Shown: positions 20,677 to 38,583, counted from the first letter of the whole stretch. The stretch: 55,781 nt of DNA, filler included, from an uncultured bacterium (GCA_964543655.1; 6 parts of 5 records of this genome joined end to end with filler, not necessarily neighbours in it), one strand, 5' to 3'. The notes: generated by a model from the sequence alone, not told the origin. Program-made: numbers and translations.

Positions 20677-20685
20677 CAAATTATT

Positions 20686-21960
20686 TTATTTCATTAATGA
20701 TGGCAGAAACATAGTAATTGGAGACCAGAATGAGATTATTAAAAGGTCAAAGATTAAAGCCACAAGAAAAGGTAAAATTGCTCTACTAACTTCAATTATA
20801 GAATTCCTTGAAATTCCACATGATACAATCAGACAAATTCCAAGTGGTGGGGTAAGCATTCCAATAGCAAGGTTAGTAACCACAATAACACCCATTTGAA
20901 TAGGGTCTATTCCAAGTTTTGGTACTATTGGCATTATTATTGGCACAAGTAAAATCAATGAAACAGTTGTTTCAACAAAAGTGCCAGCTATTAATAGTAT
21001 GAAATTTATGAGAAGCAGTATTAAGATAGGATTGTTTGTCAAGCCTAAAATTTTACTACCAATAAGCTGAGGGATATTTTCCATAGTGATTATCCAGCCA
21101 AAAATAGAAGCAGTTGAAATTATAAATAAAATAATTGATGCAAGCACAGCAGAATCAATAAGTAATTTGGGCATATCTTTAAAAGTGAGCTCTTTATAAA
21201 TAAATTTTCCCACAACAAATCCATAAATTACTGCAACAGCAGCAGCTTCAGTAGCAGTAAAAACTCCACCTAAAATACCTCCAAGAATAATAATTGGAGC
21301 ACCAAGTGACCAGAAAGCTTCTTTAAATGTTTTAAAAACATTTTTTAAAGAAAATGATACTGCACTACCGTAACCATATTTGGTTGAAATGAAAATAGCA
21401 ACAAGTATTAATGAAAATCCCATTAAAATTCCAGGGAAAATACCAGCAGCAAATAGCTTGGATATAGAGGTGCCAGTAATAAAGCCATATATTATCATTG
21501 GAATACTTGGAGGAATAATAACTCCAATTGAACCGCCAGATGCCTGAATAGCTGCTGAAAAACTATCTTTATAGCCTCTTTGAATCATAGCAGGAATAAG
21601 CAGTGCTCCAACCGCAGCAGTATCAGCAGCAGCAGAGCCTGAAATACCGGCAAAAAACATACTTGCAACAACTGCAACTGCTGCAAGACCTCCAGGTAAC
21701 CAACCAACAAGAGCTTCAGCAAAGTTCACTATTCTTTTGGAAATACCACCTACATCCATTAAAGCACCTGCAAGCATAAAGAGAGGCACTGCCATTAGAG
21801 GAAAAGAATCTACAGCATTAACCATTCTTTGCGTTACCATTATCAGAGGAAAATCTGTAAAAAATAGCAGAGTGAAAATAGAGGATATTGCAATAGCAAG
21901 AAAAATTGGAGCATTTATTAAAAATAGAACTATTAAGAAAATTATTAAAAATACACTCAT
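20686..21960 (-). CDS. dctM: TRAP transporter large permease
   Basis: Motifs AVPLFMLAG, GISGSAAAD, IIPPSIP, FTATEAAA and LTPPLG. Confidence 0.95.
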   Translation of the reverse strand: MSVFLIIFLIVLFLINAPIFLAIAISSIFTLLFFTDFPLIMVTQRMVNAVDSFPLMAVPLFMLAGALMDVGGISKRIVNFAEALVGWLPGGLAAVAVVASMFFAGISGSAAADTAAVGALLIPAMIQRGYKDSFSAAIQASGGSIGVIIPPSIPMIIYGFITGTSISKLFAAGIFPGILMGFSLILVAIFISTKYGYGSAVSFSLKNVFKTFKEAFWSLGAPIIILGGILGGVFTATEAAAVAVIYGFVVGKFIYKELTFKDMPKLLIDSAVLASIILFIISTASIFGWIITMENIPQLIGSKILGLTNNPILILLLINFILLIAGTFVETTVSLILLVPIIMPIVPKLGIDPIQMGVIVVTNLAIGMLTPPLGICLIVSCGISRNSIIEVSRAILPFLVALIFDLLIISFWSPITMFLPSLMK

Positions 21961-22431
21961 TTATTTACTCTTTTTAAAAAATTCAATAAAATTTGCAAAA
22001 AAATGTAAAAGCATTAAAAAACCACCTACACAAATTGATGCATAAGGAATTGTCATTGGCATTAAAAGAGCCGCAGATTTTTGGAATCTTGCAAAATATG
22101 CAAATTTGTAGCCAAAGTAGCATATTATTGCGGCAAAAAAGATTCCAAGTATAATTATTATGAAATCAAGAATTTTCCTAAAAATTCCAGAGGTTCTATT
22201 GTATAAAAAGTCAATACCAATATGTGCAAATCGCTTTACCCCAACAGAAGCACCTAAAAAAGTTATCCAGATTAACAGGTATCTTCCAACCTCTTCTGAC
22301 CAGTATAGTGAATGGTTAAATACATACCTGCATATAACCTGGCCAAAAATTATAACAGAGATAGCAGCCATTAAAATCATTACCACTATCTCTGTTATTT
22401 TATTGAGTAAATTGCTAAATTTTTGAATCAT
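21961..22431 (-). CDS. dctQ: TRAP transporter small permease
   Basis: Motif QVICRY...WSEEVGRYLLIWITFLG..., then HIGID. Confidence 0.93.
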   Translation of the reverse strand: MIQKFSNLLNKITEIVVMILMAAISVIIFGQVICRYVFNHSLYWSEEVGRYLLIWITFLGASVGVKRFAHIGIDFLYNRTSGIFRKILDFIIIILGIFFAAIICYFGYKFAYFARFQKSAALLMPMTIPYASICVGGFLMLLHFFANFIEFFKKSK

Positions 22432-22435
22432 ACTA

Positions 22436-23404
22436 CTACTTTACAGCATTAAGAAGTCTATCTACAAGCTTTGCACCAATTGTTTTTTTAGCATCATCAT
22501 ACATTGGAGCTATTTTTTTTCTAAAACTATTAATATCTGGATGCTCATCAACAATCATTCCCATTTTAATTAAATGTTTTAAAAATTTTGCATTGTTATC
22601 TCTATTCCATTTTCTTTCATAATTTGATGCAATTGCTGCTGCTTTTAAGAACAATTGCTGGTCTTTTTTGGAAAGAGAATTAAATTTGTTAAGATTCATA
22701 ATAAATACAAGTGGTGAATATACGTGTCTTGTTAAAGATAGATATTTTTGTACTTCGTAAAGTTTATATTTGTCAATAACCCAGAGTGGATTTTCTTGGC
22801 CATCAATGGTACCTTGCTGAAGAGCTGTGTTAATAGGCCATCCCATTGGTGTAGGATTAGCACCTAACATTCTCCATAATTTAACGTGCATTGGAGCAGC
22901 CATTGTTCTAATTTTTAATCCTTTAACATCTGCAACAGTATGAACAGGTCTTACGTTGTTTGTAAGGTTTCTAAAGCCATTTTCAAGAAAATGTAGCCCT
23001 TTGAAACCCTGTTTTTCAAGAGACTTTAACACTTCCTGACCAATTGGACCATCCAAAATTTCATCTGCCTGTTTATAATCTTTGAAAATAAAAGGTAGAT
23101 CAAAGAGCTGAATTTTTTTGTTAAAATTACCAATTGGTCCTGATGTAATTACACCGAGATCAACAGTACCAAGCTGAATTTGTTGTAAAATTGAGCTTTC
23201 ATTACCTAATGATGCACTGTGGTAAATTTTGAATTTAAATCTACCATTTGATTCTTTCTCAACAATTTCTTTAAATTTTTTACAGGCAATATAGTGACCA
23301 GATTGAGGTGTTGTAACAATACCGATTTTCATTTTAACAGCACCTGATAGAGAAAGAGTCATTGCAAAAATAATTGCAACTACAAATAAAAGTAACCTTT
23401 TCAT
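22436..23404 (-). CDS. dctP: TRAP transporter substrate-binding protein
   Basis: Signal peptide, then NGFRNL, GLKIRT and LQQGTIDGQEN. Confidence 0.95.
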   Translation of the reverse strand: MKRLLLFVVAIIFAMTLSLSGAVKMKIGIVTTPQSGHYIACKKFKEIVEKESNGRFKFKIYHSASLGNESSILQQIQLGTVDLGVITSGPIGNFNKKIQLFDLPFIFKDYKQADEILDGPIGQEVLKSLEKQGFKGLHFLENGFRNLTNNVRPVHTVADVKGLKIRTMAAPMHVKLWRMLGANPTPMGWPINTALQQGTIDGQENPLWVIDKYKLYEVQKYLSLTRHVYSPLVFIMNLNKFNSLSKKDQQLFLKAAAIASNYERKWNRDNNAKFLKHLIKMGMIVDEHPDINSFRKKIAPMYDDAKKTIGAKLVDRLLNAVK

Positions 23405-23492
23405 TGTAACCCTCCTTTAAATTTTGGTAACACTAAAAATTATTTTTACTACAGTTTTTTAATGTTGTCAAACACTTTTTTAATATTAGTAA

Positions 23493-23819
23493 TCATAATG
23501 AACTTTTGTTATTTTTATAATATTTAAAAATAATATAAAAAGTTAAGGCTCCTGCACTATTGGATAGAATATCTCCAACAGAAAAGCTCCGCCATGGGAT
23601 AAAATATTGTATTATTTCTATTAAAATGCCGTAAATAATAGCAGAAACAACAAAATGTTTACATTTTATAAGGTAAAATGAAAAAGCAGATAATATATAT
23701 AAAAAGAAATGTACAACTTTATCAGATTCTTCTGGTAGATTTGATGTATTTACCTTTATAACTGATAGAATGAAAATAGTTATTAAAAATAAGTAGCCTA
23801 AATATTTAGAATTATTCAT
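23493..23819 (-). CDS. VanZ-family membrane protein
   Basis: Motifs DKVVHFFLY and EIIQYFIPWRSFSVGDILSN. Confidence 0.85.
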   Translation of the reverse strand: MNNSKYLGYLFLITIFILSVIKVNTSNLPEESDKVVHFFLYILSAFSFYLIKCKHFVVSAIIYGILIEIIQYFIPWRSFSVGDILSNSAGALTFYIIFKYYKNNKSSL

Positions 23820-25044
23820 AGTAAAAATTGCTATCAAAAATAGCTACTGTAACTTTGTCACCTTTTTTTACAAATGGCTCGCCTTCGTCAATAATAATAA
23901 AGCAGTTGCCTTTTTTCATTGATGATAAAATACCTGAACCTTGCGCACCTGTAGTTGTAACAAAGAATTTATTATCTTTTAAATGGAGAATACCTCTTAT
24001 AAATTCACATCTAACATCTTTTCTTTTTATATTATCTTGAAGGATGGCTTTGAATCTTCTAAGAAAGAGCTCTTTTTTCCCTGACATTTTTCTAATTGCA
24101 GGTAAGATAAAGTTGTAAAAGCTTGACATTGTAGAAACTGGATTGCCCGGGATACCAAAAAATAGAGTTTTGCCCTTTTTAGCAAAAAATAGAGGCTTGC
24201 CAGGTTTTACTCTAACTCTCCAAAAAATAGGCTCAAAGCCAAGTTCAATAATAATATCTTTGACAAAATCGTATTCTCCCATTGACACTCCACCTGTTGA
24301 AAGTATAATATCAGAGTTGAGAGAATTTTTTATTTTTTCTTTTAAAATTTCTGGATTATCATCAATAATTTCTGAAAAGCAGGCATTAAGCCCCTGCTGA
24401 CTTAGCATTGCTCTCAAAGTAAAGCCGTTGGAGTTTCGTATTTTACCTTTAGATAGTTCTTCATCAATATCAACAATTTCATCACCAGTTACAAGGACTG
24501 ATACAACAGGTTGCTTAAAAACTTTTATATAACTCCTGCCAAATGAAGATAAAATCCCAAAAACAGCAGGAGTAATAGTGGTACCATTTTTTATAACTTT
24601 TTCACCTTTTTTTATATCCTCTCCTGCTTTTCTTAGATCATTGTTCTCTTTTATATGCTCAAAAATATAGACAAAATTATTCTCCTCTTTTGTAATTTCT
24701 TTCCTTGCAATACAATTTGCACCTTCTGGCACTTTAGCGCCTGTCATTATTTTAACAGCTTCTCCCTTGCCAACTGATTTGTTAAAAAGAGAGCCTGCTG
24801 AAACTGTACCTAAAATTTTTAGTTTAACAGGATTATTTTCACTGGCACCAACTGTATCTTCACTTCGTAGAGCAAAACCATCCATAGCAGAATTATCATA
24901 TGGTGGGATATTGTATGAAGCAATAATATCTTCAGCTATTGTCCTATTTAATGCATCTGATAGAAATATTTTTTCAGTTGTAAGTGTCTCGCTATTTTGA
25001 AGTATAAGCTTAATTGCTTCTTTAACTGATATGTCTTTAAGCAT
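23812..25044 (-). CDS. moeA: Molybdopterin molybdotransferase
   Basis: Motifs SAMDGFA, IMTGA, TGDEI, TGGVSMGEYD, KPGKP and PGNPVS. Confidence 0.95.
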   Translation of the reverse strand: MLKDISVKEAIKLILQNSETLTTEKIFLSDALNRTIAEDIIASYNIPPYDNSAMDGFALRSEDTVGASENNPVKLKILGTVSAGSLFNKSVGKGEAVKIMTGAKVPEGANCIARKEITKEENNFVYIFEHIKENNDLRKAGEDIKKGEKVIKNGTTITPAVFGILSSFGRSYIKVFKQPVVSVLVTGDEIVDIDEELSKGKIRNSNGFTLRAMLSQQGLNACFSEIIDDNPEILKEKIKNSLNSDIILSTGGVSMGEYDFVKDIIIELGFEPIFWRVRVKPGKPLFFAKKGKTLFFGIPGNPVSTMSSFYNFILPAIRKMSGKKELFLRRFKAILQDNIKRKDVRCEFIRGILHLKDNKFFVTTTGAQGSGILSSMKKGNCFIIIDEGEPFVKKGDKVTVAIFDSNFYYE

Positions 25045-26421
25045 CTATTTCCCCTCAATTATTATTTTACCTCTTTTATTATTTCCGCCCATAACAAAAA
25101 CTTTCTGAGTTGAAACAAAGTATATAATCTCTTTTCCTGTTACTATGCTGTTGCCATCTTTGAGAACAGGATTGCCATACATGGTTATTTTATTTTCTGG
25201 GACATAGTATACAATTCTATCTGCCCGTCCCTCTTTAGTAAGGTAGTAAAGTTCAACTCCATCTATAGCCTCTACTTTGTAAATGTTTTTGTTTTTCTTA
25301 TTTAAATAAGCAATTAATTTATCACACTTTATAACCAGGTCTTCTCTTGTAACAACTACGCCACCCTGAAAAACAACCTTCTGGCCATTGTCAAGGTAAT
25401 CCACTTCATTTGCAGAAACATTAACAGGTATTTTATTCTCTTCTCCCTCTTCACGAGATATATCTTCACTCTTTTTATACTCTTTCTTTATTGTCTCTGA
25501 GGTTTTTAAAGTTACAAGGGTTCTCTTTTTTTCTGATAATAGTTTCAAATCGTATGCAAAGCTTGAAGAAGGTGGGTATGCAAACTCTTTTCTCCCAGGT
25601 GAATAATATTTGTCATTAACATCTTCTTCATCCATAAAGTAATATTCTTTTATTCGTGCCCATAAATTGAATCTATCTTTTACAGGATGTTTTATTAATT
25701 TTTTTGCTCTATAAGTATACCTGCTTGCAGGGTAAATCTTTACTAATTGCTTTAATATGTTAATACCTTTATCTTTTTTTCCAATATCAATGTAAGATTT
25801 TCCAAGATAATACATTACTTTGTCATCAATAAAGCCGGGGTAAAGTCTTAAAATTTTTTCAAATCTTGCAATTGAAGCTTTGTATCTCTCCTGCTTAAAA
25901 TAGAAATATCCAATATAAAAGTTATTTTTTGCAATTTTTCTTTTACATTCATGAATTCTATGCAGGGCAACTGTAACAAACCTGCTTCTTGGAAATCTTT
26001 TAATTAAATATGAGAAATATTTCAATGCTTCATGGAGTTTTGATTGATCCCTGTCAATAGTGGAAATCTGTTTATATTGAATCATTCCAAGCTGATAATA
26101 AGCATATGGGACTAATTTATTTTTTGGATGAAGTTTTATAAATTCAAGGTAAGCATTTTCTGCTTCTATATATTTTTCTGCTTTGTATAAGCTATCGCAA
26201 TATTTAATTTCTACTTCAAGAATTCTTTTGTCAAAAGGGAACCTATTTTTAAATTCAAGGAATTTTTCAGAGGCTTTTTCATATTTTCCCCTGTTATAAA
26301 GAGAAATAGCTTCATTATACAAAGGATCTGGCTCAACAACTTGAGGGATGTTTTTTTTGGAGCAGCTAATGAAGATAGTAATAAAAAGTAAAAAAAATAG
26401 AATGAATTTATATTTTTTCAA
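25045..26421 (-). CDS. bamD: BamD (TPR lipoprotein) fused to a C-terminal LptA/OstA-like beta-jellyroll domain
   Basis: Lipobox FISC, then BamD-type TPRs (FKNRFP, FIKLHP, IDRDQ, IGYFYFKQERYKASIARF). Residues about 330-458 follow the LptA pattern PVNVSANE...VVFQGGVVVT...IKCDKL...GNPVLKDG...TGKEI. Confidence 0.85.
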   Translation of the reverse strand: MKKYKFILFFLLFITIFISCSKKNIPQVVEPDPLYNEAISLYNRGKYEKASEKFLEFKNRFPFDKRILEVEIKYCDSLYKAEKYIEAENAYLEFIKLHPKNKLVPYAYYQLGMIQYKQISTIDRDQSKLHEALKYFSYLIKRFPRSRFVTVALHRIHECKRKIAKNNFYIGYFYFKQERYKASIARFEKILRLYPGFIDDKVMYYLGKSYIDIGKKDKGINILKQLVKIYPASRYTYRAKKLIKHPVKDRFNLWARIKEYYFMDEEDVNDKYYSPGRKEFAYPPSSSFAYDLKLLSEKKRTLVTLKTSETIKKEYKKSEDISREEGEENKIPVNVSANEVDYLDNGQKVVFQGGVVVTREDLVIKCDKLIAYLNKKNKNIYKVEAIDGVELYYLTKEGRADRIVYYVPENKITMYGNPVLKDGNSIVTGKEIIYFVSTQKVFVMGGNNKRGKIIIEGK

Positions 26422-26438
26422 TCAAAATCTCCTTGATG

Positions 26439-26957
26439 TTATAAAATTTCTTTGAAAATTATCTCTTTAAGCTCTTTCCTTTTTCTTTTTCTCTTTTTGT
26501 TGGTTTCTTTTGGATAACCAAGAGCAACCACTCCAAGTAGCTCAAGATTCTCAGGAGTTTGGAGTATATCTTCTACCTCTTTTCTTGCTTTTATAATTTC
26601 ACCAAGCCAAACTGCACCAAGACCTAATGTTTCAACAGCAATTAAAATATTTTCAACAGCAGCTCCCACACCCATAATATCTTTCTCCCTATGATATATA
26701 GATGATTTATCAAGGAAAAAGGGGATTAAAACAGGGGCTTCAAGAAAAATTCTTCTGTAATGTGAAAGATTGGCTATTTTCTCTTTTATCTCGTGATTTT
26801 TAATAATTATAAATTTCCAAGGTTGATTATTTAAACCAGAAGGTGCCCACCTTGCAGCTTCTAAAATTTTATAAATTAGCTCCATTTCAACATCTTTCTC
26901 CTGAAAGTGTCTTGTGCTCTTCCTTTTTAATAATATTTCATAGCAATTGTTTGTCAT
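26439..26957 (-). CDS. Nitroreductase family protein
   Basis: Motifs RKSTRHF, AARWAPSGLNNQPW and LGLGAVW. Confidence 0.92.
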   Translation of the reverse strand: MTNNCYEILLKRKSTRHFQEKDVEMELIYKILEAARWAPSGLNNQPWKFIIIKNHEIKEKIANLSHYRRIFLEAPVLIPFFLDKSSIYHREKDIMGVGAAVENILIAVETLGLGAVWLGEIIKARKEVEDILQTPENLELLGVVALGYPKETNKKRKRKRKELKEIIFKEIL

Positions 26958-26969
26958 AACAAGCTCCTT

Positions 26970-27191
26970 CTATAAATAAAAGTAGGCTTCTACTAAATTT
27001 TGTTCTAAATTCTTTTTAAATTCTTCAAGATTTTTTTCATTTATTGATACAGATACAAACCTATAACCTGGCTTAACAAATGGGTTTAATGCATTTATAG
27101 CTTCAACATAAACAGCTTTTCTATGTTCTGGTTTTGATCTGATTATATAATGTAAAATACTTTTATTTTTTATTTCAGAAAAATTTATCAT
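26970..27191 (-). CDS. Hypothetical protein
   Basis: 73-aa ORF overlapping the upstream stop by 4 nt, within a co-oriented run. Confidence 0.6.
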   Translation of the reverse strand: MINFSEIKNKSILHYIIRSKPEHRKAVYVEAINALNPFVKPGYRFVSVSINEKNLEEFKKNLEQNLVEAYFYL

Positions 27192-28183
27192 TTTTCTACC
27201 TCTATTCTATTTCCAGATTGCTTTGCTCTGTATAGAAGTTTATCGGCAATTTCTATATTTTTATCTTTGCTCAACCATGTTTTTATACTGCTGAGTCCAC
27301 CACTAATTGTAATTTTAATTTCTTTGTCATTATAGATAAATTTACCATTGGCTATTGTTTTTCGAATTCTTTCAGAAATGTAATAAGCAGTTTCTTTATT
27401 TAAATTTTTAAATAAAACTATAAACTCATCACCATAAATTCTTGCAACAATGTCTTCATCTCTTAAATTTTTCTTTAAAATCTCTGAAACTTTTTTTAAT
27501 ATTAGGTCTCCAGCAATATGACCAAAGGTATCATTTACTTTTTTAAAATTATCAATGTCAATAAAGAGAATATTTAACTTTTGTTCAAGCTTACTGAGTC
27601 TATCATAAACTTCATCAAACCCTCTTTTATTTAAAAGTCCTGTTAATTCATCAATGTAAACTTTCTCTTTTAATTCTTCAATCTGTTTGTCTTTTAATAA
27701 CTGGTTTTTTATTTCATCTTCAAGACGACCATTAATCTGATCAATTTTACTGTTGAGTTTGTTAATAAAACCAATAAATTTTTCAAAAAAGTTTTGAATT
27801 TCACCTTTCAGCTCTTCTCTATTACTATTTTCATCAAAACAATTTACCTTTTCTAAAATCTGTTTTGAATGCTTATCTATTTTACCAATTTCACTACTAA
27901 TTGTTTTTATATGCTCTCTAATATCGAGAAGAACTTTTTTAATATGTTCTGAAGACTCTTTATTGCAAAGAATAATTTTTAATTCTATTTTTGCAAAAAA
28001 ATCCTCTATTAATTTGTTAAATTCCTCTAAATTATCTTCTTGAAAATTCTCAAGAAATGATTTTATCTCATTGTAATCTGGGAAAGGTGTAATAAAATAT
28101 TTTTTGGTTAATTTATTAATTAGTAGGAAAGTATTTTTTAACACATTTTGAATATGGCTGCAATCTTTCATTTTTAACTCCAT
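27188..28183 (-). CDS. GGDEF-domain protein with coiled-coil N-terminus (active-site variant YGDEF)
   Basis: Motifs DELTGLLNKR, DIDNFKKVNDTFGH, RDED (RxxD I-site) and RIYGDEF. Confidence 0.92.
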   Translation of the reverse strand: MELKMKDCSHIQNVLKNTFLLINKLTKKYFITPFPDYNEIKSFLENFQEDNLEEFNKLIEDFFAKIELKIILCNKESSEHIKKVLLDIREHIKTISSEIGKIDKHSKQILEKVNCFDENSNREELKGEIQNFFEKFIGFINKLNSKIDQINGRLEDEIKNQLLKDKQIEELKEKVYIDELTGLLNKRGFDEVYDRLSKLEQKLNILFIDIDNFKKVNDTFGHIAGDLILKKVSEILKKNLRDEDIVARIYGDEFIVLFKNLNKETAYYISERIRKTIANGKFIYNDKEIKITISGGLSSIKTWLSKDKNIEIADKLLYRAKQSGNRIEVEK

Positions 28184-28192
28184 ATTAATAAC

Positions 28193-28816
28193 TTAAACAA
28201 AAAGCATTCTTTTGCTTAACATTTGTGATAGCACAACTATATCTTCCAATGATAGCATATCTTTTATGCTTGAATCAAATAAAAAATCAAGTGTTGATGA
28301 AAATTCTTCATCTCCTTCCCAGAAAATAACAGTAATATCTATTTTAGGGAATGCCTTTATTTTAAATGCAAAATCTCCCATTTCAATTTTTGATGCTTTT
28401 AATTTTTCTATTAAAATTTTTAAATCATTTGAGGTTTTATATTTTTCCAATAATGGAAGAATAGCTTTTTTTTGAAAAACAGGATAATAATTAAAAGCAC
28501 CAGGAATATGTTTGTAACTAACAAGTTCACCAGTGGGTTTTAGATAAGGATTGGCTTTTTCTATATAGTGTAAAATCATAATTTTAGTTGCAAGTGAAAC
28601 TATATTGGAGTTTTTTGCTGAGAAATTAAAATCTGGATAGGTTATTTCATACTGGTCATTAAATAATTTTATACTAAAATCAATTATTCCATTTTTATTG
28701 CTAATAATATTACAACCTGAAAATTTTATTTTATCAATAATGTCTGGGAAAGTTAATTTTCTCAAATTTTCCACAGCAATATTGTATGCAACTTCATAGC
28801 TTTTCTGCTTTTTCAT
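28193..28816 (-). CDS. DUF3786-family protein
   Basis: Motifs ILHY and AFPKIDITVIFWEGDEEF...LFD...LSLED. Confidence 0.8.
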   Translation of the reverse strand: MKKQKSYEVAYNIAVENLRKLTFPDIIDKIKFSGCNIISNKNGIIDFSIKLFNDQYEITYPDFNFSAKNSNIVSLATKIMILHYIEKANPYLKPTGELVSYKHIPGAFNYYPVFQKKAILPLLEKYKTSNDLKILIEKLKASKIEMGDFAFKIKAFPKIDITVIFWEGDEEFSSTLDFLFDSSIKDMLSLEDIVVLSQMLSKRMLFV

Positions 28817-28901
28817 AATAGGTTCTCTCCCTAATTATTTATAAAATATTAATTTTAAAAACTAATTGAATAAATTAACAATTTATGATAATTAAATTAA
28901 C

Positions 28902-30617
28902 ATGAAAAGTCAATGGATTATTTATGAAGAGGATAAAAAACTACAAGACAGTATTGCGCGGGAATTTAAGATTAGCAGTATAACATCTCAGATTTTAATA
29001 AATAGAGGTTTAACAGATTCAGATGTTATTAAAAGATTTTTTAATATATCTTTACAATCATTAAGTTTCCCTTTATTGCTTAAAAATCTTGAGCAAGCTT
29101 GTGATAGGATAATATATGCACTTAAAAGAAAACAGAAAATTGTTATTTATGGGGACTATGATGTTGATGGTATTACCTCTGTTTCACTTTTATATAATTT
29201 TTTTAAAGCAATTGGTGCTGAAAACATTTCATTTTACATCCCTTCGAGACTGACAGAAGGATATGGTTTAAACATTGAAGCTATTAAAAGGTTTAAACAG
29301 GAAAATATTAAATTAATTATTACAGTTGATTGTGGTGTTAGCAATATTGCAGAGATTGAGTTTGCAAATTCATTGGGAATAGATGTAATAGTTACTGATC
29401 ACCATGAAGTGCCAGATGAAGTCCCGTCTGCTTTTGCAATAGTTGATCCTAAGCAAAAAGATTGTAATTTCCCATTTAAAGACCTTGCTGGTGTTGGAAT
29501 AGCATTTTACCTTTTAATAGGTCTTAGAATGAAATTGAGAGATTCCAATTTCTGGAAAAATAGAGAAGAGTTAAATTTGAAAAATTTTCTTGATTTAGTT
29601 GCTCTTGGAACAATTGCTGATATTTGTCCCTTGAAATTTGATAATAGAATATTGGTAAAATTTGGTCTTTCAGAGCTTGAGCGCTCCAGAAGAATGGGAG
29701 TAAAAGCGTTAAAACAGATTTGTGGAATTAGAGAGGGTCAGTTAAATTATTGGAGTGTTGGTTTCAGACTTGCACCAAGGATTAATGCAATAGGTCGTTT
29801 AGATAATGCCTCTCTTGGAGTCAATCTATTAACCACTGATAACTATTCCAATGCATTAAAAATAGCATCTTTACTTGAGCAGAATAATTTTGAAAGGCAG
29901 AAAATAGAGGAAAAGATATTAAAAGAAGCACTTAAAATAATAGAAAAAAGTAAAAACCTTAAAGATAAACATAGTATTGTTCTATATTCTGATAACTGGC
30001 ATGAAGGTGTTATTGGAATTGTGTCTTCACGACTCGTGGAGAAGTATTACAAACCAACTATTCTCATTAGTTTCAATGGTAATGAAGGCAAAGGTTCTGC
30101 AAGAAGTATAAAAGATTTTGATATTTATGAAGCGTTAAGCTTATGCTCAGAATTTTTGGAGAATTTTGGTGGCCATAAGTATGCTGCTGGTATTACTTTA
30201 AAAAAAGATAAATTACACGACTTTATAGAGGCTTTTGAAGATACTGTAAAGAAACTCACTCGAAAGGAAGATTTTTATAAAAAGGTTTACATTGATAAAA
30301 AGGTAAATTTTGATGAAATAGGTGATTCTCTTATTAGAGAATTTCAGATGTTAGAGCCTTTTGGGCCATCTAATATTGAACCTACACTTTTAACAGAGGA
30401 TGTTCTTGTAACATCTGTTAGAATTTTTGGGATTAATCATGTTAAGTTGACATTAGAGCAGGGTAGTAGCTCTTTTGAAGCACTTGCTTTTAATAGAATA
30501 AAAGATAATATTACCATAGGAGATTCTTTAAATGTGTCTTATTATCCTTATTCATATAAGGAAAATGGCAAAATGGATATAAAATTGAAAATTAAAGATA
30601 TAGAGAAATTATCATGA
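28902..30617 (+). CDS. recJ: ssDNA-specific exonuclease RecJ
   Basis: Motifs GDYDVDG, TVDCG, TDHH, PRINA, GSARS and GGH. Confidence 0.97.
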   Translation: MKSQWIIYEEDKKLQDSIAREFKISSITSQILINRGLTDSDVIKRFFNISLQSLSFPLLLKNLEQACDRIIYALKRKQKIVIYGDYDVDGITSVSLLYNFFKAIGAENISFYIPSRLTEGYGLNIEAIKRFKQENIKLIITVDCGVSNIAEIEFANSLGIDVIVTDHHEVPDEVPSAFAIVDPKQKDCNFPFKDLAGVGIAFYLLIGLRMKLRDSNFWKNREELNLKNFLDLVALGTIADICPLKFDNRILVKFGLSELERSRRMGVKALKQICGIREGQLNYWSVGFRLAPRINAIGRLDNASLGVNLLTTDNYSNALKIASLLEQNNFERQKIEEKILKEALKIIEKSKNLKDKHSIVLYSDNWHEGVIGIVSSRLVEKYYKPTILISFNGNEGKGSARSIKDFDIYEALSLCSEFLENFGGHKYAAGITLKKDKLHDFIEAFEDTVKKLTRKEDFYKKVYIDKKVNFDEIGDSLIREFQMLEPFGPSNIEPTLLTEDVLVTSVRIFGINHVKLTLEQGSSSFEALAFNRIKDNITIGDSLNVSYYPYSYKENGKMDIKLKIKDIEKLS

Positions 30618-32377
30618 CTCGCAAAATAAAATTATTACCAGAAAAAATTGTAAACAAAATAGCAGCAGGTGAAGTAGTTGAAAGACCTGCATCAGTGGTT
30701 AAAGAGCTTGTGGAAAATTCTATTGATGCAAATGCTGATAAAATTAAAATAGAAATTAAAAATGCTGGTAAAAAATTAATTAAAATTTCAGATAATGGAG
30801 TGGGATTAACTCGAGATGACCTTCTCCTTGCATTTGAAAGGCATGCTACAAGTAAAATTTCTGATATAGATGATCTCTATTGCATTAAAACTCTTGGTTT
30901 TCGTGGAGAAGCTCTACCAAGTATAGCATCTGTTAGCAAGGTAAGAGCCAAGACTAAAACTTCTTCTTGCAATGTTGGTTTTGAAATTTTTTTAGAAGGT
31001 GGAATAATTAAAAATGTTTCAGAGGTAGCAATTAACCCAGGATTTACAATAGAGGTGCGTGATATTTTTTTTAATGTACCTGCAAGGCTCAAATTTTTAA
31101 AAAAAACAGCCACTGAAAATGCTTATATTGAAAATGTTGTAAAAAGGTTTCTGTTATCTAATCCAGAAAAAGAGTTTACTTTTATTTCAAATAGTCGTAA
31201 TAAATTTTATCAAAAATGCAAAAGTATTCTTGAAAGAATAGAGCAGATTTACTCTGAAGAAATCTCATCTAATCTCATACCATTTACAGTTGAGGAAGAA
31301 GATTTTTACATTTCAGGATACCTATCTCCACCTGATATAACATCATCATATTCAAATGATATAAATATATTTTTAAATGGAAGATTTATCAGAGACAAAG
31401 TTATATATTTTGCAATAAAGGAAGCATACAAAGGTAAAATTTTTGAAAAGCGTTATCCATACATATTTTTGTTCATTAATATTGAGCCATCAAAGGTGGA
31501 TGTTAATGTGCATCCTGCAAAATTAGAAGTAAAATTTCATGATGAGAAGAAATTATTCAATATTATCAGGAACAATATAGAGACAGTTATTTCTCACTCC
31601 TCAAATTTTTTTATTCAAAGAAAAGAAGAAGAAAAGCCTTTTCAGTCATTTGATAAATTTAAAAATTTTATTAAATCTTCAATAGAAAAATACCGAGCAA
31701 AAGAGAATATAGATTTTCACATTCATAATGAAATGGAAGAGGAAGTAAATCTTGGGAAGTTTTTCTCTGATGATAATTATAGTTCAAATGCTCCTTTTTA
31801 TTCAAATCTTGATTACTTAGGGTATTTTCTTGACACTTTTTTGCTTTTTAAAAAAGGAGAGTCCCTCTACATTATAGACCAGCATGCTGCACATGAAAGG
31901 GTACAGCTTGAAAAGCTGAAAAATAATTTATCATCAGGTGATAAGAGCATTAAAAAGTTACTTATTCCAGAGATTTTAGAAATATTGGATAGAGAAAAAA
32001 AGATTTTATTAAAACATATTGAGCATATAAATAAGCTTGGGATTTTAATTGAAGAATTTGATGATAAAACACTTGTTTTAAAAGGAGTGCCAGTTATTCT
32101 TGAGCACATTGAACCTAAAGAGCTTATAGAGATTATAGTTAAAGAGTTAGAAACTAAAAATAGTTCCACTACAATAGATGAGATTAATGAAAGAGTGCTC
32201 TCATCAATAGCTTGTAAATCTGCTTTAAAAGCTGGCACAAAATTAGATGAAAAAAATATTTTCTTTTTATTAAAAGAGCTTGATGCAGTTCCCAATAATA
32301 GAACTTGCCCTCATGGTAGACCTATTTTAATTGAAATTAGCAAAAATGAAATATTCAAAAGATTTAAAAGAACATAA
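30614..32377 (+). CDS. mutL: DNA mismatch repair protein MutL (with endonuclease motif)
   Basis: Motifs IAAGEVVERP, GFRGEAL, DQHAAHER and CPHGRP. Confidence 0.97.
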   Translation: MTRKIKLLPEKIVNKIAAGEVVERPASVVKELVENSIDANADKIKIEIKNAGKKLIKISDNGVGLTRDDLLLAFERHATSKISDIDDLYCIKTLGFRGEALPSIASVSKVRAKTKTSSCNVGFEIFLEGGIIKNVSEVAINPGFTIEVRDIFFNVPARLKFLKKTATENAYIENVVKRFLLSNPEKEFTFISNSRNKFYQKCKSILERIEQIYSEEISSNLIPFTVEEEDFYISGYLSPPDITSSYSNDINIFLNGRFIRDKVIYFAIKEAYKGKIFEKRYPYIFLFINIEPSKVDVNVHPAKLEVKFHDEKKLFNIIRNNIETVISHSSNFFIQRKEEEKPFQSFDKFKNFIKSSIEKYRAKENIDFHIHNEMEEEVNLGKFFSDDNYSSNAPFYSNLDYLGYFLDTFLLFKKGESLYIIDQHAAHERVQLEKLKNNLSSGDKSIKKLLIPEILEILDREKKILLKHIEHINKLGILIEEFDDKTLVLKGVPVILEHIEPKELIEIIVKELETKNSSTTIDEINERVLSSIACKSALKAGTKLDEKNIFFLLKELDAVPNNRTCPHGRPILIEISKNEIFKRFKRT

Positions 32378-32833
32378 ATGAAGCAATCAATTTCAGAAAA
32401 AGTTCATATTTTAATAGCCACAGGATTTTACTCAGGTTATTCAAAGTTTATGCCTGGAACTATTGGAACATTGGCATCTGTTCCTTTTGCTCTTTTTATT
32501 AATTACTACTTCTCTCATGTTTTTATTCTTTTTTTTATTATAGCAGGGAGTATTTATTCATTTTTTATTTGCTATGATGTTGAAAGAATTTTTAATAAAA
32601 AAGACCCTTCTGAAATAGTAATAGATGAATGGCTTGGTTTCTTTATATCTGTGTTTATGCTTCCAATTAATTTTAAAAACTATCTAATAGCTTTTATTCT
32701 CTTCAGAATATTTGATATTGGAAAACCATTTCCTGTTAAAAGATTGGAGCAATTACCAAATGGTATAGGTGTGGTTGCAGATGATTTAATGGCAGGAATA
32801 TATACTTTTATTATTCTGAAGCTGTTCTTGTAG
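32378..32833 (+). CDS. pgpA: Phosphatidylglycerophosphatase A
   Basis: Motifs PGTIGT, DPSEIVIDE, FRIFDIGKP and DDLMAG. Confidence 0.94.
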   Translation: MKQSISEKVHILIATGFYSGYSKFMPGTIGTLASVPFALFINYYFSHVFILFFIIAGSIYSFFICYDVERIFNKKDPSEIVIDEWLGFFISVFMLPINFKNYLIAFILFRIFDIGKPFPVKRLEQLPNGIGVVADDLMAGIYTFIILKLFL

Positions 32834-33431
32834 AGAAGATTTTAGAATATTCAAATAGAGATAGATAACTCTGAAAATTTTTGATTCGGTAGTTGGTTTC
32901 AACAATTACACCCCATACAATATCCTGCATAAAGATATTTGCAAGTTTTCTATCAAATAAAATTTTTAATGAACAAGGAAAATCCTCATCTCCTTCCCAA
33001 AAAATATAAGCAATAAAAAAATCTTTTAATGGCTCAAGCAGGTATGAAGAATCACCCATTTGAAGCTTTTTTCCATTGAATATTTCCATTATTTTATTAA
33101 AAGTTTCTACATTTTTTACTCTGCTTAAAACTAATTCCTCTTTTAATGAATGAACTCCTCTAAAAAAGAACCCCCAATCTTTTCTAAATTCAACAGCTAC
33201 TAATTCATCAATGGCAATATTTTCTAATTTTTCTCTTTGCTTTTGATAATTAATGAGTATTGGATAAAAAGTTGTAGGGATATTTGAATGAAAATTTAGT
33301 GGTTCTATCTTTTTTTCCCCTGGATTAACAAGGTATTTCTCTTTTAAAAATTGAATTTCAAATGGAGAATTTAACCCATCCCATAGAGAATCATCAAGAG
33401 GAAAACCCTGGTTTAAATAAAAAATACTCAT
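32811..33431 (-). CDS. DUF3786-family protein (second copy)
   Basis: Motifs GFFFRGVH and FWEGDEDFP...ILFD. Confidence 0.7.
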   Translation of the reverse strand: MSIFYLNQGFPLDDSLWDGLNSPFEIQFLKEKYLVNPGEKKIEPLNFHSNIPTTFYPILINYQKQREKLENIAIDELVAVEFRKDWGFFFRGVHSLKEELVLSRVKNVETFNKIMEIFNGKKLQMGDSSYLLEPLKDFFIAYIFWEGDEDFPCSLKILFDRKLANIFMQDIVWGVIVETNYRIKNFQSYLSLFEYSKIFSTRTASE

Positions 33432-33835
33432 TTTAACACCATTAAATCAACAGAAGCATTTGCAACAATTTTTTTATTTTCTTTAAAAAAAACATCAACA
33501 TTAACAGTAATTCTCCGTGTGCCACAATATATAATTTTAGCAATTGCTCTTAATTTATCACCTAAATTAGCTGGTCTGAAAAATTTTATATTAAACCCTG
33601 ATGTTGTCAGCTTCATCCCTGAAGGTAATAGTTTGCCAGGGAAAAAAGCAATGGTATCAACTACTCCAGCAACAACACCACCATGTAACCCACCTATATA
33701 ATTTGCATGCTTTTTTAATACAACAAAATCACAAATTGCAGATTCTTCTGCAACATCTATTAAATTTATTTTTAATGTTTTAACAAATTCTATGTTATCA
33801 AAAATCTCTTTTGCTTTAAAAAAGTAGTTATTCAT
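33428..33835 (-). CDS. PaaI-family thioesterase
   Basis: Motif NYIGGLHGGVVAGVVD. Start moved to ATG 33835. Confidence 0.88.
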   Translation of the reverse strand: MNNYFFKAKEIFDNIEFVKTLKINLIDVAEESAICDFVVLKKHANYIGGLHGGVVAGVVDTIAFFPGKLLPSGMKLTTSGFNIKFFRPANLGDKLRAIAKIIYCGTRRITVNVDVFFKENKKIVANASVDLMVLK

Positions 33836-34106
33836 TTGCTGCTTTTGCTCCGCAACTATTTGTGCAAGATGAGCAGCTATTAGGGGTAGCAGTACTATTT
33901 TTATCATTTTTAGAACTACTGTTTTTCTTAGCATAGTCTGTTACATACCATCCTGAGCCTTTTAAATGAAAGGCAGATGGTGAAATTAGTTTTCTCATAA
34001 CAGCAGAGCATTTGGGACAAGTAATTTCAGGAGTTTCACTTATTTTATGCATTTTTTCAATAATAGTACCACACTCTGTACATTCATATTCATATATTGG
34101 CATCAT
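33828..34106 (-). CDS. FmdB-family zinc-ribbon protein
   Basis: MPIYEYECTECG...CPKC...LKGSGWYVTDY. Confidence 0.92.
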   Translation of the reverse strand: MMPIYEYECTECGTIIEKMHKISETPEITCPKCSAVMRKLISPSAFHLKGSGWYVTDYAKKNSSSKNDKNSTATPNSCSSCTNSCGAKAANE

Positions 34107-34393
34107 ACTCCTCCTAATATTTTTTCAAATTTGTTTTTTTCAATATCTTTAAAAAAAATTGCTTTATCTTTAGATTTTTCTCCACTAATAATTTCTATTT
34201 TTGATTTACTTAAATTTAGTAACTTTGAAAAAAATTTTTTAATCTCTTTATTTGCAGCACCATCAACTGGTGGAGAAGAAATTTTTATCTTTAATCTGCC
34301 ACTATATTCACCAATGATTTCAGACTTTTTTGCATTTGGCACTATATGCACATAGAGTATTATTCCACTCTCTTTTTCTTTGAGCCATTCCAT
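34103..34393 (-). CDS. DUF167 (YggU-like) protein
   Basis: Motifs VPNAKKSEI, SPPVDGAAN and GEKSK. Confidence 0.9.
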   Translation of the reverse strand: MEWLKEKESGIILYVHIVPNAKKSEIIGEYSGRLKIKISSPPVDGAANKEIKKFFSKLLNLSKSKIEIISGEKSKDKAIFFKDIEKNKFEKILGGV

Positions 34394-34562
34394 GCTACTG
34401 GTAAAATATATATTTTTTTATAATTGTCAAGAAATTTATTTTTGTTGTTGCTTTTTAAATTTTTTTAATATATTTAAAAAATCAATAATTTTAGACAGGT
34501 AATAAAAGTTCAAGGCTGAAAATTCATAATTAAAAATAAGAAAAATTATTTTAAGTGGAAAA

Positions 34563-36620
34563 TTGCATAATAAATTGCCCTTAATTAAACACTTCACAAA
34601 TATTTTAGATTTCAGGAAAAAAAGCTTCCATATACCAGAGCATACTTTTATGGTTATTGTTGCTGTTTTTATTGGTATATTAGGAGGCTTTGGTGCTGTA
34701 TTCTTCAGATATGCAATTAAATTTTTTCAAAAACTTTTTTTTGGTTCATTTCATTACAATCTCGATTATGTACTTTCACTTCCTTGGTATGTAAAACTAT
34801 TTGCTCCTGCACTTGGTGGATTAATTGTTGGGCCTATTGTTTATTTTTTTGCAAGAGAAGCTAAAGGTCATGGTGTACCTGAGGTAATGGAATCAATTGC
34901 TTTAAAAGGTGGTACTATTAGACCAAGGGTTATGATTGCAAAAGTAATAGCATCAGCTGTTTGCATTGGCTCTGGTGGTTCAGTTGGTAGGGAAGGGCCA
35001 ATTGTCCAGATTGGGTCAGCTCTTGGCTCCACAATTGGACAATTTCTAAAAGTTACTGGTTCTCATTTGAGGACATTTGTAGCATGTGGCGCTGCTGCTG
35101 GTATTGCCGGAACTTTTAATGCGCCAATTGCAGGTGCGCTTTTTTCTATGGAAGTTATTCTTGGTGATTTTGGAATATCCCAATTTTCTCCAATTGTTGT
35201 TTCATCTGTTGCTTCTACTGTTGTTTCAAGGCATTTTCTTGGAAATTTTCCTGCTTTTGTGGTGCCAAAGTATGAGCTTTTATCAGTATATGAAATGATT
35301 CCATACACTATTCTTGGGTTTCTTGCTGCTTTTATTGCCCTCCTATTTATTAATGTTTTGTATAAATTTGAAGATTTTTTTGAAAAATTAAAATTCCCAG
35401 AAATGTTTCAGCCTGTTATAGGAGGACTAATTATTGGTTTTATAGGGCTTTATTTGCCACATATTTTTGGTGTTGGTTATGATACAATTACCCTTGCATT
35501 AACTGGTAAATTAACCTGGTATTTTTTGCTACTATTAATATTTATGAAGCTTTTAGCTACTTCTATTACAATAGGCTCTGGTGGTTCAGGTGGTGTTTTT
35601 GCCCCATCGCTTTTTATTGGTGCAAATTTAGGTGGTTTTGTTGGGACTATTTTTCATGACCTCTTTCCAAATGTAATTGCTTCCCCTGGGGCGTATGCAC
35701 TTGTTGGAATGGGTGCGGTTGCTGCTGGTGCAATGCATGCTCCAATTACATCTATTGTTATAATTTTTGAATTAACCAACAATTATACTATTATATTACC
35801 GTTAATGATCTCTTGCATAATTAGTGTTTTAATTACAAGCAGATTGCAGAAAGATTCAATCTATACTTTAAAGCTTTCAAGAAGAGGAGTTGATCTTTTA
35901 AAAGGCCAGGAATTAAATATTTTAAAATCATTAAAAGTTTCTCAAGTATTAAGTAAAAAATTTGTTAAAATTTATGCTAATACAACATTGAAAAATCTTG
36001 TTGAATTAATAGTTTCCACTCCAAATCATAATTTTTTTGTTGTGGATAATGATGATAAAATTATTGGTGTAATTTCCATTGATGAACTTAGAAATGTGTT
36101 AAATGATCTTGAAAACCTTGAACCACTATTAGTTGCATATGATATAATGACACCATTAAACAGATTTTTTTATGAAGAAGATACCCTTGATATAGTTATG
36201 AAAGCCTTTGAACAGTTAAATATTGATGAGATACCTGTGGTAAATAAAGAGAGCAGAATAATAGGCACAGTGTCTAAAAATGACGTTATTAATGCATATA
36301 ATCAGGAAGTGTTTAAAAGAGATACTCTTAATCAGTTTTCATCCTATATAAATTCTCTTGACAAATTTAAAGAAATTCAATTAATGCCAGGACAATTTTT
36401 AGCTGAACTTGAAGCTCCTTCCAAATTTATTGGGCACAGTATAAGAGAATTAAATGTAGCAAACAGGTATAATGTTGAAATTGTTTTAATTAAAAGAAAG
36501 GCTGGGGAAAATTATTCAATAATTGTTCCAAATGCAAATTTTATTTTTGAAAAGGAGGATGTTATTATTGTTATTGGAAGCAAGAAAGATATTGATAAAT
36601 TAAAAGGTTATCTACTTTAA
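34563..36620 (+). CDS. ClC chloride channel/antiporter with CBS pair and C-terminal TrkA_C (RCK_C) domain
   Basis: Motifs GHGVPE, GREGP, FNAP and GGVFAP, then CBS repeats and FIGHSIRELNV...FEKEDVIIVIG. Confidence 0.93.
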   Translation: MHNKLPLIKHFTNILDFRKKSFHIPEHTFMVIVAVFIGILGGFGAVFFRYAIKFFQKLFFGSFHYNLDYVLSLPWYVKLFAPALGGLIVGPIVYFFAREAKGHGVPEVMESIALKGGTIRPRVMIAKVIASAVCIGSGGSVGREGPIVQIGSALGSTIGQFLKVTGSHLRTFVACGAAAGIAGTFNAPIAGALFSMEVILGDFGISQFSPIVVSSVASTVVSRHFLGNFPAFVVPKYELLSVYEMIPYTILGFLAAFIALLFINVLYKFEDFFEKLKFPEMFQPVIGGLIIGFIGLYLPHIFGVGYDTITLALTGKLTWYFLLLLIFMKLLATSITIGSGGSGGVFAPSLFIGANLGGFVGTIFHDLFPNVIASPGAYALVGMGAVAAGAMHAPITSIVIIFELTNNYTIILPLMISCIISVLITSRLQKDSIYTLKLSRRGVDLLKGQELNILKSLKVSQVLSKKFVKIYANTTLKNLVELIVSTPNHNFFVVDNDDKIIGVISIDELRNVLNDLENLEPLLVAYDIMTPLNRFFYEEDTLDIVMKAFEQLNIDEIPVVNKESRIIGTVSKNDVINAYNQEVFKRDTLNQFSSYINSLDKFKEIQLMPGQFLAELEAPSKFIGHSIRELNVANRYNVEIVLIKRKAGENYSIIVPNANFIFEKEDVIIVIGSKKDIDKLKGYLL

Positions 36621-36669
36621 AATAAAATAGAACCTTGAAAAAAATGAAATGTTAAGTTATAAATGTGTT

Positions 36670-37194
36670 ATGAAATATAGAAATATTTTAAAATTTTTTA
36701 TTTTTTTTATTATTCTTTTATCTTTTTTTACCTGTTCAAGAAAGGAAAAGTTTAAAGAAACCAATAAAAAGCGGACAGAGGTCAGAACAGAAAGAGCAAA
36801 GTATATAAAAATATACAATGTAAATTATACTGTAAAAAAAGGACAGAAATATTATTGGCTTACAGTAACTTTTTATGCAAATAACTCTTCAGATAAAACT
36901 ATCTACTGGTTTAAAGTATTGGTAAATGTTTTTAGCAAAGGACGGCTAACTCATTCCATTGTGTACACACCAAACTACTATAAAGGTAAAAACACAAATA
37001 TTAAATATTACCATACTCTTGCACCAGATCAAACAGGTCAATTTAAGATTATATTAGGTAGCAGCTATAAAATTAAGGAAAAGCCAGATTATGTTAAAGT
37101 TGTGACATTTGATGCAGGTGATAATCTTGATATTTTCAAAAATATAAGAGTAAATCCAGATAAATATTTTATTCCATATACTCCTGGAGATTAA
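36670..37194 (+). CDS. Hypothetical exported protein or lipoprotein
   Basis: Hydrophobic N-terminus ending FFTC, followed by a beta-rich body. Confidence 0.65.
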   Translation: MKYRNILKFFIFFIILLSFFTCSRKEKFKETNKKRTEVRTERAKYIKIYNVNYTVKKGQKYYWLTVTFYANNSSDKTIYWFKVLVNVFSKGRLTHSIVYTPNYYKGKNTNIKYYHTLAPDQTGQFKIILGSSYKIKEKPDYVKVVTFDAGDNLDIFKNIRVNPDKYFIPYTPGD

Positions 37195-37196
37195 AG

Positions 37197-38450
37197 TTGC
37201 TTTTTGAAAAACCACTTTATGAAATTCTTAGACCTACCAATTTTAAAGATTTTGCTGGGCATGAAAAAATTATATTAAACTTGCAAAAACCATTAAATCT
37301 TATTTTATGGGGACCTCCTGGAGTAGGCAAAACCACCCTTGCATATATACTCGCCACAAAATGGGGAAAGCCTTTTTATCAATTATCAGCAGTTTTAAGT
37401 GGAAAAAAGGATGTTAAAGAGATTATAGAAAAAATTGAGAACAGTGGTAAACAATCGATTATTTTTATTGATGAAATCCATGCTTTTAACAAATCTCAGC
37501 AAAATATTTTTCTGAAACATATAGAATCAGGTTTAATTATACTCATTGGTGCAACCACAGAAAATCCATCTTTTGAAATTATTTCTCCACTTCTTTCAAG
37601 AACAAAGTTAATAGTATTAGAAAAATTAACCTTTGAAAACCTTGGTAAAATATTTGATAATGCATTAACTTTTTTAAAAGAGAGGGGTTTTTCAATAGAG
37701 TTTTACAAAGAGTTTAAAGAGCATATAATAATGTTTAGTAATGGTGATGCAAGGGTTTTATTAAACACTTTTGAGCAGGTATTGAGCCTATTTGATTCAA
37801 AAACAATTTACATTAATAAAGATGATTTTTTTAAAAGCACAGGAAAGAGGACAATTGTTTATGACAAAAAATATGAAGAGCATTATAATTTATTGTCAGC
37901 TTTTCATAAAAGTTTAAGGGGTAGTGATGCTGATGCTGCTCTTTACTGGGCATTTAGAATGCTTGATGCAGGAGAGGAGCCACGGAGTATTTTTAGAAGA
38001 CTTATAGCATGTGCAAGTGAGGATATTGGTAATGCAGATCCACAGGCACTAATTATTGCAGTTAATAGCTGGCAGGCTTTTGAATTTCTTGGAAGGCCAG
38101 AAGGAGACCTTCCCCTATCACAGGCTATTATCTATATTGCCACGGCTCCAAAAAGTAACAGTGTGTATAAAGCATTAAATAGTGTTAAAACAGAAATTAA
38201 ACGTAGTGGATATGAGCCAGTGCCAATGCACTTGAGAAATGCTGTAAATTCATTTATGAAAAAGCTATATTATGGCAAAGATTATAAATACCCTCACGAT
38301 TATCCATATGCAATTGTGGATCAAACCTACCTACCAGAAACTATTCAAAATAAAAATTTCTATTCACCAAAAGAAGTTGGTTTTGAAAGAGAGATAAAAA
38401 AAAGAATAGAATGGATAAAAAAGAGAAAGAAAACAGGTAGTAACAGATAA
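37197..38450 (+). CDS. rarA: Replication-associated recombination protein A (MgsA/RarA)
   Basis: Motifs GPPGVGKTT, DEIH, ATTENP, HKSLRGSD, SEDIGNADP and PMHLRNA. Confidence 0.95.
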   Translation: MLFEKPLYEILRPTNFKDFAGHEKIILNLQKPLNLILWGPPGVGKTTLAYILATKWGKPFYQLSAVLSGKKDVKEIIEKIENSGKQSIIFIDEIHAFNKSQQNIFLKHIESGLIILIGATTENPSFEIISPLLSRTKLIVLEKLTFENLGKIFDNALTFLKERGFSIEFYKEFKEHIIMFSNGDARVLLNTFEQVLSLFDSKTIYINKDDFFKSTGKRTIVYDKKYEEHYNLLSAFHKSLRGSDADAALYWAFRMLDAGEEPRSIFRRLIACASEDIGNADPQALIIAVNSWQAFEFLGRPEGDLPLSQAIIYIATAPKSNSVYKALNSVKTEIKRSGYEPVPMHLRNAVNSFMKKLYYGKDYKYPHDYPYAIVDQTYLPETIQNKNFYSPKEVGFEREIKKRIEWIKKRKKTGSNR

Positions 38451-38509
38451 AATAGAGTTTTTCAAATTTGTCCTTTCATAAAAAATCTTAAAATCATCAA
38501 TAAAAAGAT

Positions 38510-38536
38510 TAAAGTTTTTTTTAAAACAGCCGAATA
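38510..38536 (+). promoter_or_regulatory. Sigma-28 (FliA) promoter of flagellin
   Basis: TAAA-N15-GCCGAATA, 47 nt upstream of the flagellin ATG. Confidence 0.85.
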
Positions 38537-38546
38537 GAAAAATAAA

Positions 38547-38578: not shown

Positions 38579-38583
38579 TTAAA

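Follow-up and report, generated by a model that had tools for sequence, protein, structure and literature searches.

A single gene in an uncultured bacterium encodes an outer-membrane-anchored BamD that carries, on a partly disordered leash of 83 residues, an extra and complete LptA-type beta-jellyroll. The gene lies at positions 25045..26421, on the minus strand, of the window (the whole stretch of DNA that was analysed, 55,781 nucleotides with filler included). BamD, a subunit of the BAM complex, and LptA, the periplasmic LPS bridge, are normally separate proteins that belong to different machines, and BAM assembles LptD. Gram-negative cells have to coordinate protein insertion by BAM with lipopolysaccharide insertion by Lpt in an outer membrane that lacks an energy source and allows almost no lateral diffusion. 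A conserved fusion of a core BAM subunit with an Lpt building block is classic "Rosetta stone" evidence for physical proximity of two machines; it hints that BAM and Lpt work side by side in these uncultured bacteria and points to two surfaces, the C-terminus of BamD and the LptA-type edges, with which LptD or LptA would make contact. What is new is the conserved combination of two well-known modules linking two envelope machines; the proteins themselves are already in public databases, where they are automatically named "BamD" or "LptA".

One gene encodes both domains

The ORF listing of the window gave a single frame of 458 codons for 25045..26421 (-), starting with TTG, and we found no stop codon or frameshift inside it. 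The preceding gene, of the nitroreductase family, ends 17 nt 5' of this start. By our own HMMs, BamD extends to residue 245 and the jellyroll begins at residue 329, with an 83-aa linker between them. The features of the gene, in the direction of transcription, are:

26429..26434, minus strand: Shine-Dalgarno sequence AAGGAG, 7 nt 5' of the TTG (read from the sequence)
26362..26421, minus strand: signal peptide and lipobox ...IFIS-C20 (aa 1-20), predicted lipoprotein anchor (translation, conservation of C20, helix at aa 2-19 in the model)
25687..26331, minus strand: BamD TPR domain (aa 31-245) (PF13525, TIGR03302, Foldseek, R186)
25438..25686, minus strand: 83-residue linker (aa 246-328) (own HMM boundaries, composition, invariant columns, pLDDT)
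25048..25437, minus strand: LptA-type beta-jellyroll (aa 329-458), ending at the C-terminus (PF03968, TIGR03002, profile, Foldseek)
25045..25047, minus strand: stop codon, directly abutted by the start of moeA (25044)

This anatomy bears out that given in an earlier note on the same DNA, which had described one uninterrupted 458-aa ORF with a lipobox, TPRs to about aa 245, a linker of about 85 aa and a jellyroll at 25045-25431. The frame is indeed single and unbroken, and the boundaries from our HMMs agree with those in the note. The lipobox was likewise borne out: we called the protein a lipoprotein from reading the sequence, and all of the 22 aligned homologues share its cysteine, C20.

Both end domains match solved relatives

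The BamD half matched PF13525 (YfiO, Pfam) with 121 bits over aa 31-210 (cut-off 25) and TIGR03302 (NCBIfam) with 187 bits against a cut-off of 81.4. The jellyroll matched PF03968 (LptD_N) with 69.8 bits over aa 334-440, spanning model positions 1-113 of 113, and the LptA equivalog TIGR03002 with 74.6 bits against a cut-off of 71.7 over aa 329-456 (model positions 6-140 of 142), such that all four families were found above their curated cut-offs. An AlphaFold2 model built from a 22-sequence alignment had a mean pLDDT of 77.3 and a pTM of 0.50. In this model, an N-terminal helix (aa 2-19) is followed by a confident helical repeat domain at aa 31-244 (pLDDT mostly 80-94), and aa 334-454 form a beta-sandwich with block pLDDT values of mostly 79-89.

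Foldseek comparison of the model against the PDB returned BamD chains at each of the first 24 ranks shown, with TMt up to 0.89, including 3qky (E 4.9e-14) and 5d0o_D (TMt 0.87), and the predicted five-TPR fold superposes on solved BamD. A profile alignment to 5d0o_D placed R197 of E. coli BamD, which we take to be the arginine that contacts POTRA5 of BamA, opposite R186, which is invariant in the family. BamA itself is encoded in the same genome (TIGR03303, 636 bits, 758-aa frame). We looked for a second BamD in this genome, and the only other notable match to PF13525 was YbgF/CpoB (TIGR02795, 124 bits); that candidate was rejected, and the fusion protein is the only BamD predicted for the genome. 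In five of five further fusion genomes, the sole single stretch above the TIGR03302 cut-off likewise sits in the fusion frame. The protein thus has in common with BamD (YfiO; E. coli 5d0o chain D, Rhodothermus marinus 3qky), the essential TPR lipoprotein of BAM, the predicted lipoprotein anchor, the five-TPR fold, the TIGR03302 match, the equivalent of R197 and a BamA in the genome, but it exceeds E. coli BamD (245 aa) by 213 C-terminal residues, which comprise the conserved linker and the complete LptA-type jellyroll.

The earlier note had expected the C-terminus to fold as OstA/LptA, and it does so in the model: Foldseek aligned the jellyroll to E. coli LptA (2r1a_C) with a TMt of 0.85 and an rmsd of 2.6 Å over 138 columns, and to Pseudomonas aeruginosa LptH (4uu4) with a TMt of 0.79. 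A profile of linker plus jellyroll, run against all solved chains, found LptA and LptH only (nine of nine hits). The motif of the N-terminal strand, with an invariant P332, aligns to 'QPIHIESD' of E. coli LptA, and both edge regions of the jellyroll look LptA-like. Of 69 complete fusions, 62 have only 0-13 residues after the jellyroll, which leaves its C-terminal edge free; the other seven have an extra tail of about 245-350 residues there.

The domain therefore has the beta-jellyroll fold, the strand motif with its conserved proline and the above-cut-off TIGR03002 score in common with LptA (YhbN; E. coli 2r19/2r1a) and LptH, which are soluble periplasmic bridge units. Unlike LptA, the fused copy is not free in the periplasm, lies outside the lptC-lptA-lptB operon and is covalently leashed to an outer-membrane lipoprotein. 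It is only 26% identical (over 133 aa) to the separate 167-aa operon LptA of its own genome and falls in a different clade. The domain is LptA-type rather than a functional LptA orthologue, because it forms the C-terminus of a lipoprotein encoded on contig C98 and the operon LptA is a separate protein encoded on contig C58. The N-terminal jellyroll of LptD also matches PF03968 and is likewise positioned at the inner face of the outer membrane; however, the LptD jellyroll is fused to its own barrel, whereas here the jellyroll is joined to BamD through a flexible linker, and Foldseek ranks LptA and LptH above LptD (9kn3_A, rank 50).

The linker is rich in K, E, S and Y; in the model its pLDDT drops under 50 from aa 266 to 307, and short helices form at 253-262 and 308-323. 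Two motifs, D267..D270.Y272 and Y282.P284, are invariant columns in the 22-sequence alignment. We measured the anatomy of the family on the 69 complete fusions. Linker length ranged from 45 to 320 residues (median 126), and the linkers were of low complexity and K/E- or P/A-rich, while both end domains were conserved. The clade of the window is unusual in that its linkers are held to 82-85 residues with conserved motifs; both motifs recur only in this clade and a sister subfamily (23 of the 69). In their variable length and low complexity, the linkers are more in keeping with a tether serving to raise local concentration than with a rigid part or one that sets a fixed geometry.

The fusion is a family found in uncultured lineages

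A word-indexed protein search returned 34 proteins, 25 of which have both PF13525 and PF03968 (448-542 aa, 100% to 25% identity). Scanning species-representative genomes gave 26 loci, with 22 two-domain frames, 20 of them complete and two running off their contigs. The loci are titled "uncultured bacterium", Deltaproteobacteria, Thermodesulfobacteriota, Proteobacteria or Pseudomonadota bacterium, or Candidatus Tharpella, and one two-domain locus is titled Candidatus Methylomirabilis sp. In the phylum of the window, a small phylum from vents with six species genomes, all six have the fusion, one of them in a gene cut by two contig ends.

A second phylum (that of locus L015, with MAGs titled Thermodesulfobacteriota or Deltaproteobacteria) was searched in 401 evenly drawn genomes with the linker plus jellyroll profile. 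Full-profile matches in frames of 487-592 aa were found in 13 genomes; the BamD part was confirmed in eight of eight by fetched frames and in two by TIGR03302, and the coordinates of the remaining three are those of known two-domain loci (L020, L024, L027). Among the 150 matches listed were 49 further long frames, 36 of which have BamD and the jellyroll in one frame and 13 of which have the jellyroll behind a non-BamD N-terminus. The fusion is thus present in at least 49 of the 401 genomes, or at least about one in eight, a lower bound since there were 257 further matches besides the 150 listed. Some lineages of this second phylum have short forms of 416-460 aa. Finally, a profile search of 1.84 billion cluster representatives gave 18 BamD-bearing proteins among the best 150. 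Eleven of these were run against NCBIfam: all 11 matched TIGR03302 with 180-226 bits (cut-off 81.4), and all matched TIGR03002 with 57.6-83.1 bits, five above the cut-off of 71.7 and six below it. That the fusion is universal in the vent phylum and present in at least about one in eight sampled genomes of the second indicates that selection has kept it.

The window comes from a metagenome-assembled genome, which is the only point in favour of an artefact in which adjacent bamD and lptA-paralogue genes were joined by misassembly, a sequencing frameshift or a lost stop codon; we found no supporting sign of one. A single contig from run X1, probably the source sample, covers 24800-26700 with no indel. 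Contigs from an independent 2025 study (X2) cover 24 of the 30 bins of the stretch with no indel and match it exactly across the linker, with 0 differences over 25450-25639, the place at which the earlier note had proposed to check coverage; a third run, X3, was left out of this comparison as it covers only six of the 30 bins. Moreover, both domains share an uninterrupted frame throughout the vent phylum, apart from the one gene split between contig ends, the complete loci of the genome scan come from independent assemblies, and 44 further two-domain frames were fetched from other genomes (36 of 49, and eight of eight). These unchanged contigs and the many independent assemblies exclude misassembly, frameshift and lost stop, leaving the chance of an artefact close to nil. 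Together, these data uphold the claim of the earlier note that the fusion is real, and relatives do encode it as one gene rather than two, but it is not peculiar to this genome and instead belongs to a sizeable family in uncultured lineages.

All named carriers that we found are MAGs, with no cultured carrier among them, which is probably why the fusion has gone undescribed. The earlier note knew of no description of this architecture, and we found none either in full-text searches covering freely accessible papers and the main text of bioRxiv preprints; a keyword check of a 2026 BAM review likewise brought up no mention of it.

Whether the fused jellyrolls share one origin was addressed with trees. 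A FastTree tree of 205 jellyroll domains was unresolved, with 13 label changes needed for the fused domains. In a quick IQ-TREE tree of 65 rows the fused domains fell into about five groups on an unresolved backbone, and the resident LptAs of the carriers grouped separately from the fused jellyrolls, in well-supported clades of their own, which argues that the fused domain is not a recent copy of the lptA of its neighbour. An AU test, for which the fragment-like rows rep_P0160 and rep_P0046 were left out of the comparison set, did not reject a single clade of all 29 fused rows (p 0.355). A single ancient fusion event is therefore possible on these sequences, being neither shown nor excluded by the test.

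The carriers also encode a separate Lpt route

The genome is a 2.26-Mb MAG of 102 contigs and 94% completeness. Only positions 20677-38907 of the window lie on the contig that carries the fusion, and the rest consists of other contigs of the MAG or N, so that apparent long-range synteny across the window is not real. The stand-alone lptA that the earlier note had proposed to look for is present: a canonical kdsC-lptC-lptA-lptB-rpoN row on another contig encodes the LptA of 167 aa. The genome also encodes LptE and an LptD of 705 aa with a normal-looking N-terminal jellyroll, completing a full separate set of LptB, C, A, D and E in addition to BamA. Given this complete set and its stand-alone LptA, the jellyroll borne by BamD is supernumerary. 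The same holds more widely, as a stand-alone LptA (171-193 aa) was found in five of five other fusion genomes tested and LptD in four of the five.

Downstream of the fusion, moeA (molybdopterin molybdenumtransferase; 23812-25044, minus strand) begins immediately after the fusion stop codon and is also the downstream neighbour in four loci of close relatives (L009-L012), and the two genes are therefore probably co-transcribed; no functional link between them is apparent. The fusion is flanked by moeA and the nitroreductase-family gene in the phylum of the window and, in the second clade, by radical-SAM, IF-2B-family and gatC genes. Comparison of the neighbourhoods found no lpt or bam genes adjoining the fusion in either clade.

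Further upstream on the same strand, 26970-28816 encodes a DUF3786 protein (207 aa), a GGDEF diguanylate cyclase (331 aa) whose N-terminal half is coiled-coil-like, and a 73-aa ORF without a family.

Related architectures

Several other architectures surfaced in these searches. Long forms of about 800-1135 aa (P0117, P0174, P0201-P0222; loci L055, L059, L062, L069, L075) have extra C-terminal domains after the jellyroll, which precomputed families assign to PF24125 and, in some, to PF14534 and PF13474.

In a second class of leashed jellyroll, a signal peptide precedes an N-terminal domain of about 140-170 aa without a Pfam match, from which an acidic or proline-rich linker leads to a C-terminal LptA-type jellyroll. 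Its members are P0041, P0047, P0048, P0057, P0067, P0095, P0102, P0161 and P0168 together with the 13 of 49 long frames (from L036-L084) that lack BamD, and a language-model look-up points to CsgG/LpoB-like clusters for the N-terminal domain (score 0.95). With this second class, the leashing of LptA-type domains to modules of the periplasm or outer membrane seems to extend beyond the BamD fusion.

Possible roles of the tethered jellyroll

The earlier note had offered three possible roles for the jellyroll: an aid to LptD assembly, an OM-anchored unit of the bridge, or a lipid-tail chaperone. Lpt jellyrolls (LptC-LptA-LptD) pair edge-to-edge, and since the fused domain appears to have LptA-like edges, with a free edge at the C-terminus, docking on LptD or LptA would be the most economical way to account for it. 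Our best reading, which we regard as plausible while falling a little short of probable, is that the tethered jellyroll holds the LptDE translocon or the end of the bridge near BAM. Its edges would pair with those of the periplasmic LptD jellyroll, of LptA where the bridge reaches the outer membrane, or of both, and the leash would thereby hold the translocon or bridge end no further from BAM than its own length. Newly made LPS would in that case arrive at the sites of beta-barrel insertion, and LptD would remain close to BAM, the machine that assembles it.

There are points of contact with what has been reported for E. coli. According to one preprint, LptD/E stays partly associated with BAM through BamB and BamD (10.1101/2025.01.03.631273), and a further paper describes BamA and LptD as both forming clusters and proposes LPS-only patches where LptDE clusters lie away from BamA clusters (PMC11912417). 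The non-covalent association of BAM with LptDE in E. coli (BamB, BamD and the small lipoprotein LptM) would resemble the fusion in linking OMP assembly to the LPS translocon; however, the E. coli link is transient, non-covalent and concerned with LptD maturation, whereas here an Lpt-type domain lies inside the BamD polypeptide itself.

Some of our own data weigh against this reading. Because a stand-alone LptA is present in every fusion genome examined, the bridge does not need the extra jellyroll to be complete; jellyrolls are leashed behind a CsgG/LpoB-like module too, so the tether need not be specific to BAM; and the gene neighbourhoods, having no lpt or bam genes, lend the BAM-Lpt reading no support. 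The PNAS paper on clustering also reports that OMPs and LPS differ in their insertion dynamics in E. coli (PMC11912417), so coupling is not a general rule. A bolder version, which we consider doubtful, is that BAM and Lpt form one physical supercomplex in which the BamD jellyroll is a working, outer-membrane-proximal station of the bridge docked on LptD, with LPS and protein entering a joint proteolipid patch. If this were true, each bridge would end beside a BAM complex and LPS would be deposited jointly with beta-barrel proteins, a hard-wired answer to a coordination problem for which E. coli has loose clustering, if any solution at all.

The main rival is that the jellyroll acts as an aid to LptD assembly, transiently covering the N-terminal jellyroll of newly made LptD for as long as its barrel is being folded by BamA and BamD, shielding the sticky beta-edges and hydrophobic groove and then letting go, without becoming a lasting part of the LPS route. 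This overlaps our best reading and differs from it in timing. The preprint on BAM and LptD/E describes LptD as a BAM substrate, with BamD taking part in substrate recognition, and LptD intermediates as stalling on BAM in E. coli bepA or lptD4213 mutants (10.1101/2025.01.03.631273). The LptA-like look of both edges would suit such a cap, and the stand-alone LptA that is always kept is what one would expect if the fused copy had another job. However, linkers of up to 320 residues far exceed the reach needed for a substrate on the same BAM, and a dedicated chaperone domain on each BamD is costly for a single low-abundance client. Weighing these points, we think an assembly aid unlikely, though it deserves to be taken seriously.

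Two further alternatives give the jellyroll a different partner or a different sign. Its groove could hold hydrophobic cargo other than LPS at BAM, such as the acyl chains of lipoproteins or phospholipids or an unfolded beta-strand of an OMP client. A 2025 proposal that LptA can carry the lipoprotein LptM to LptDE (PMC12065857) suggests that Lpt jellyrolls may accept acylated proteins, but the fused domain exceeds the trusted cut-off of TIGR03002, its profile finds only LptA and LptH among solved chains, the genomes encode a complete LPS route and we saw no sign here of any alternative ligand, all of which make this improbable. The jellyroll could instead be a brake or cap that, anchored in the outer membrane, competes with LptD for the ends of LptA chains and so limits the number of productive bridges. 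The one thing that speaks for such a brake is that binding to LptA is conceivable for an LptA-like edge. The gene has no regulatory context, tying a brake to BamD has no obvious logic, and a constructive role sits better with the conservation of the fusion in two phyla despite great differences in the linkers; we judge this the more far-fetched of the two, with very little chance of being right.

Other jellyroll arrangements

LptC-LptA fusions and multi-jellyroll proteins likewise combine an Lpt jellyroll with other modules in one polypeptide; those, however, stay inside the Lpt pathway, whereas the BamD-LptA fusion joins two different envelope machines. Two such proteins were among our matches: P0040 and P0045 have LptC (TIGR04409) followed by two or three LptA-type stretches, and are thus LptC-LptA(n) fusions in single polypeptides. 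In the genome of a relative, a stretch that matches the profile in its jellyroll part with 65 bits (G002:C206:1392-2063) has two TGA and four TAA codons inside it and may be the lptA of that genome read through into its flanks or a broken copy.
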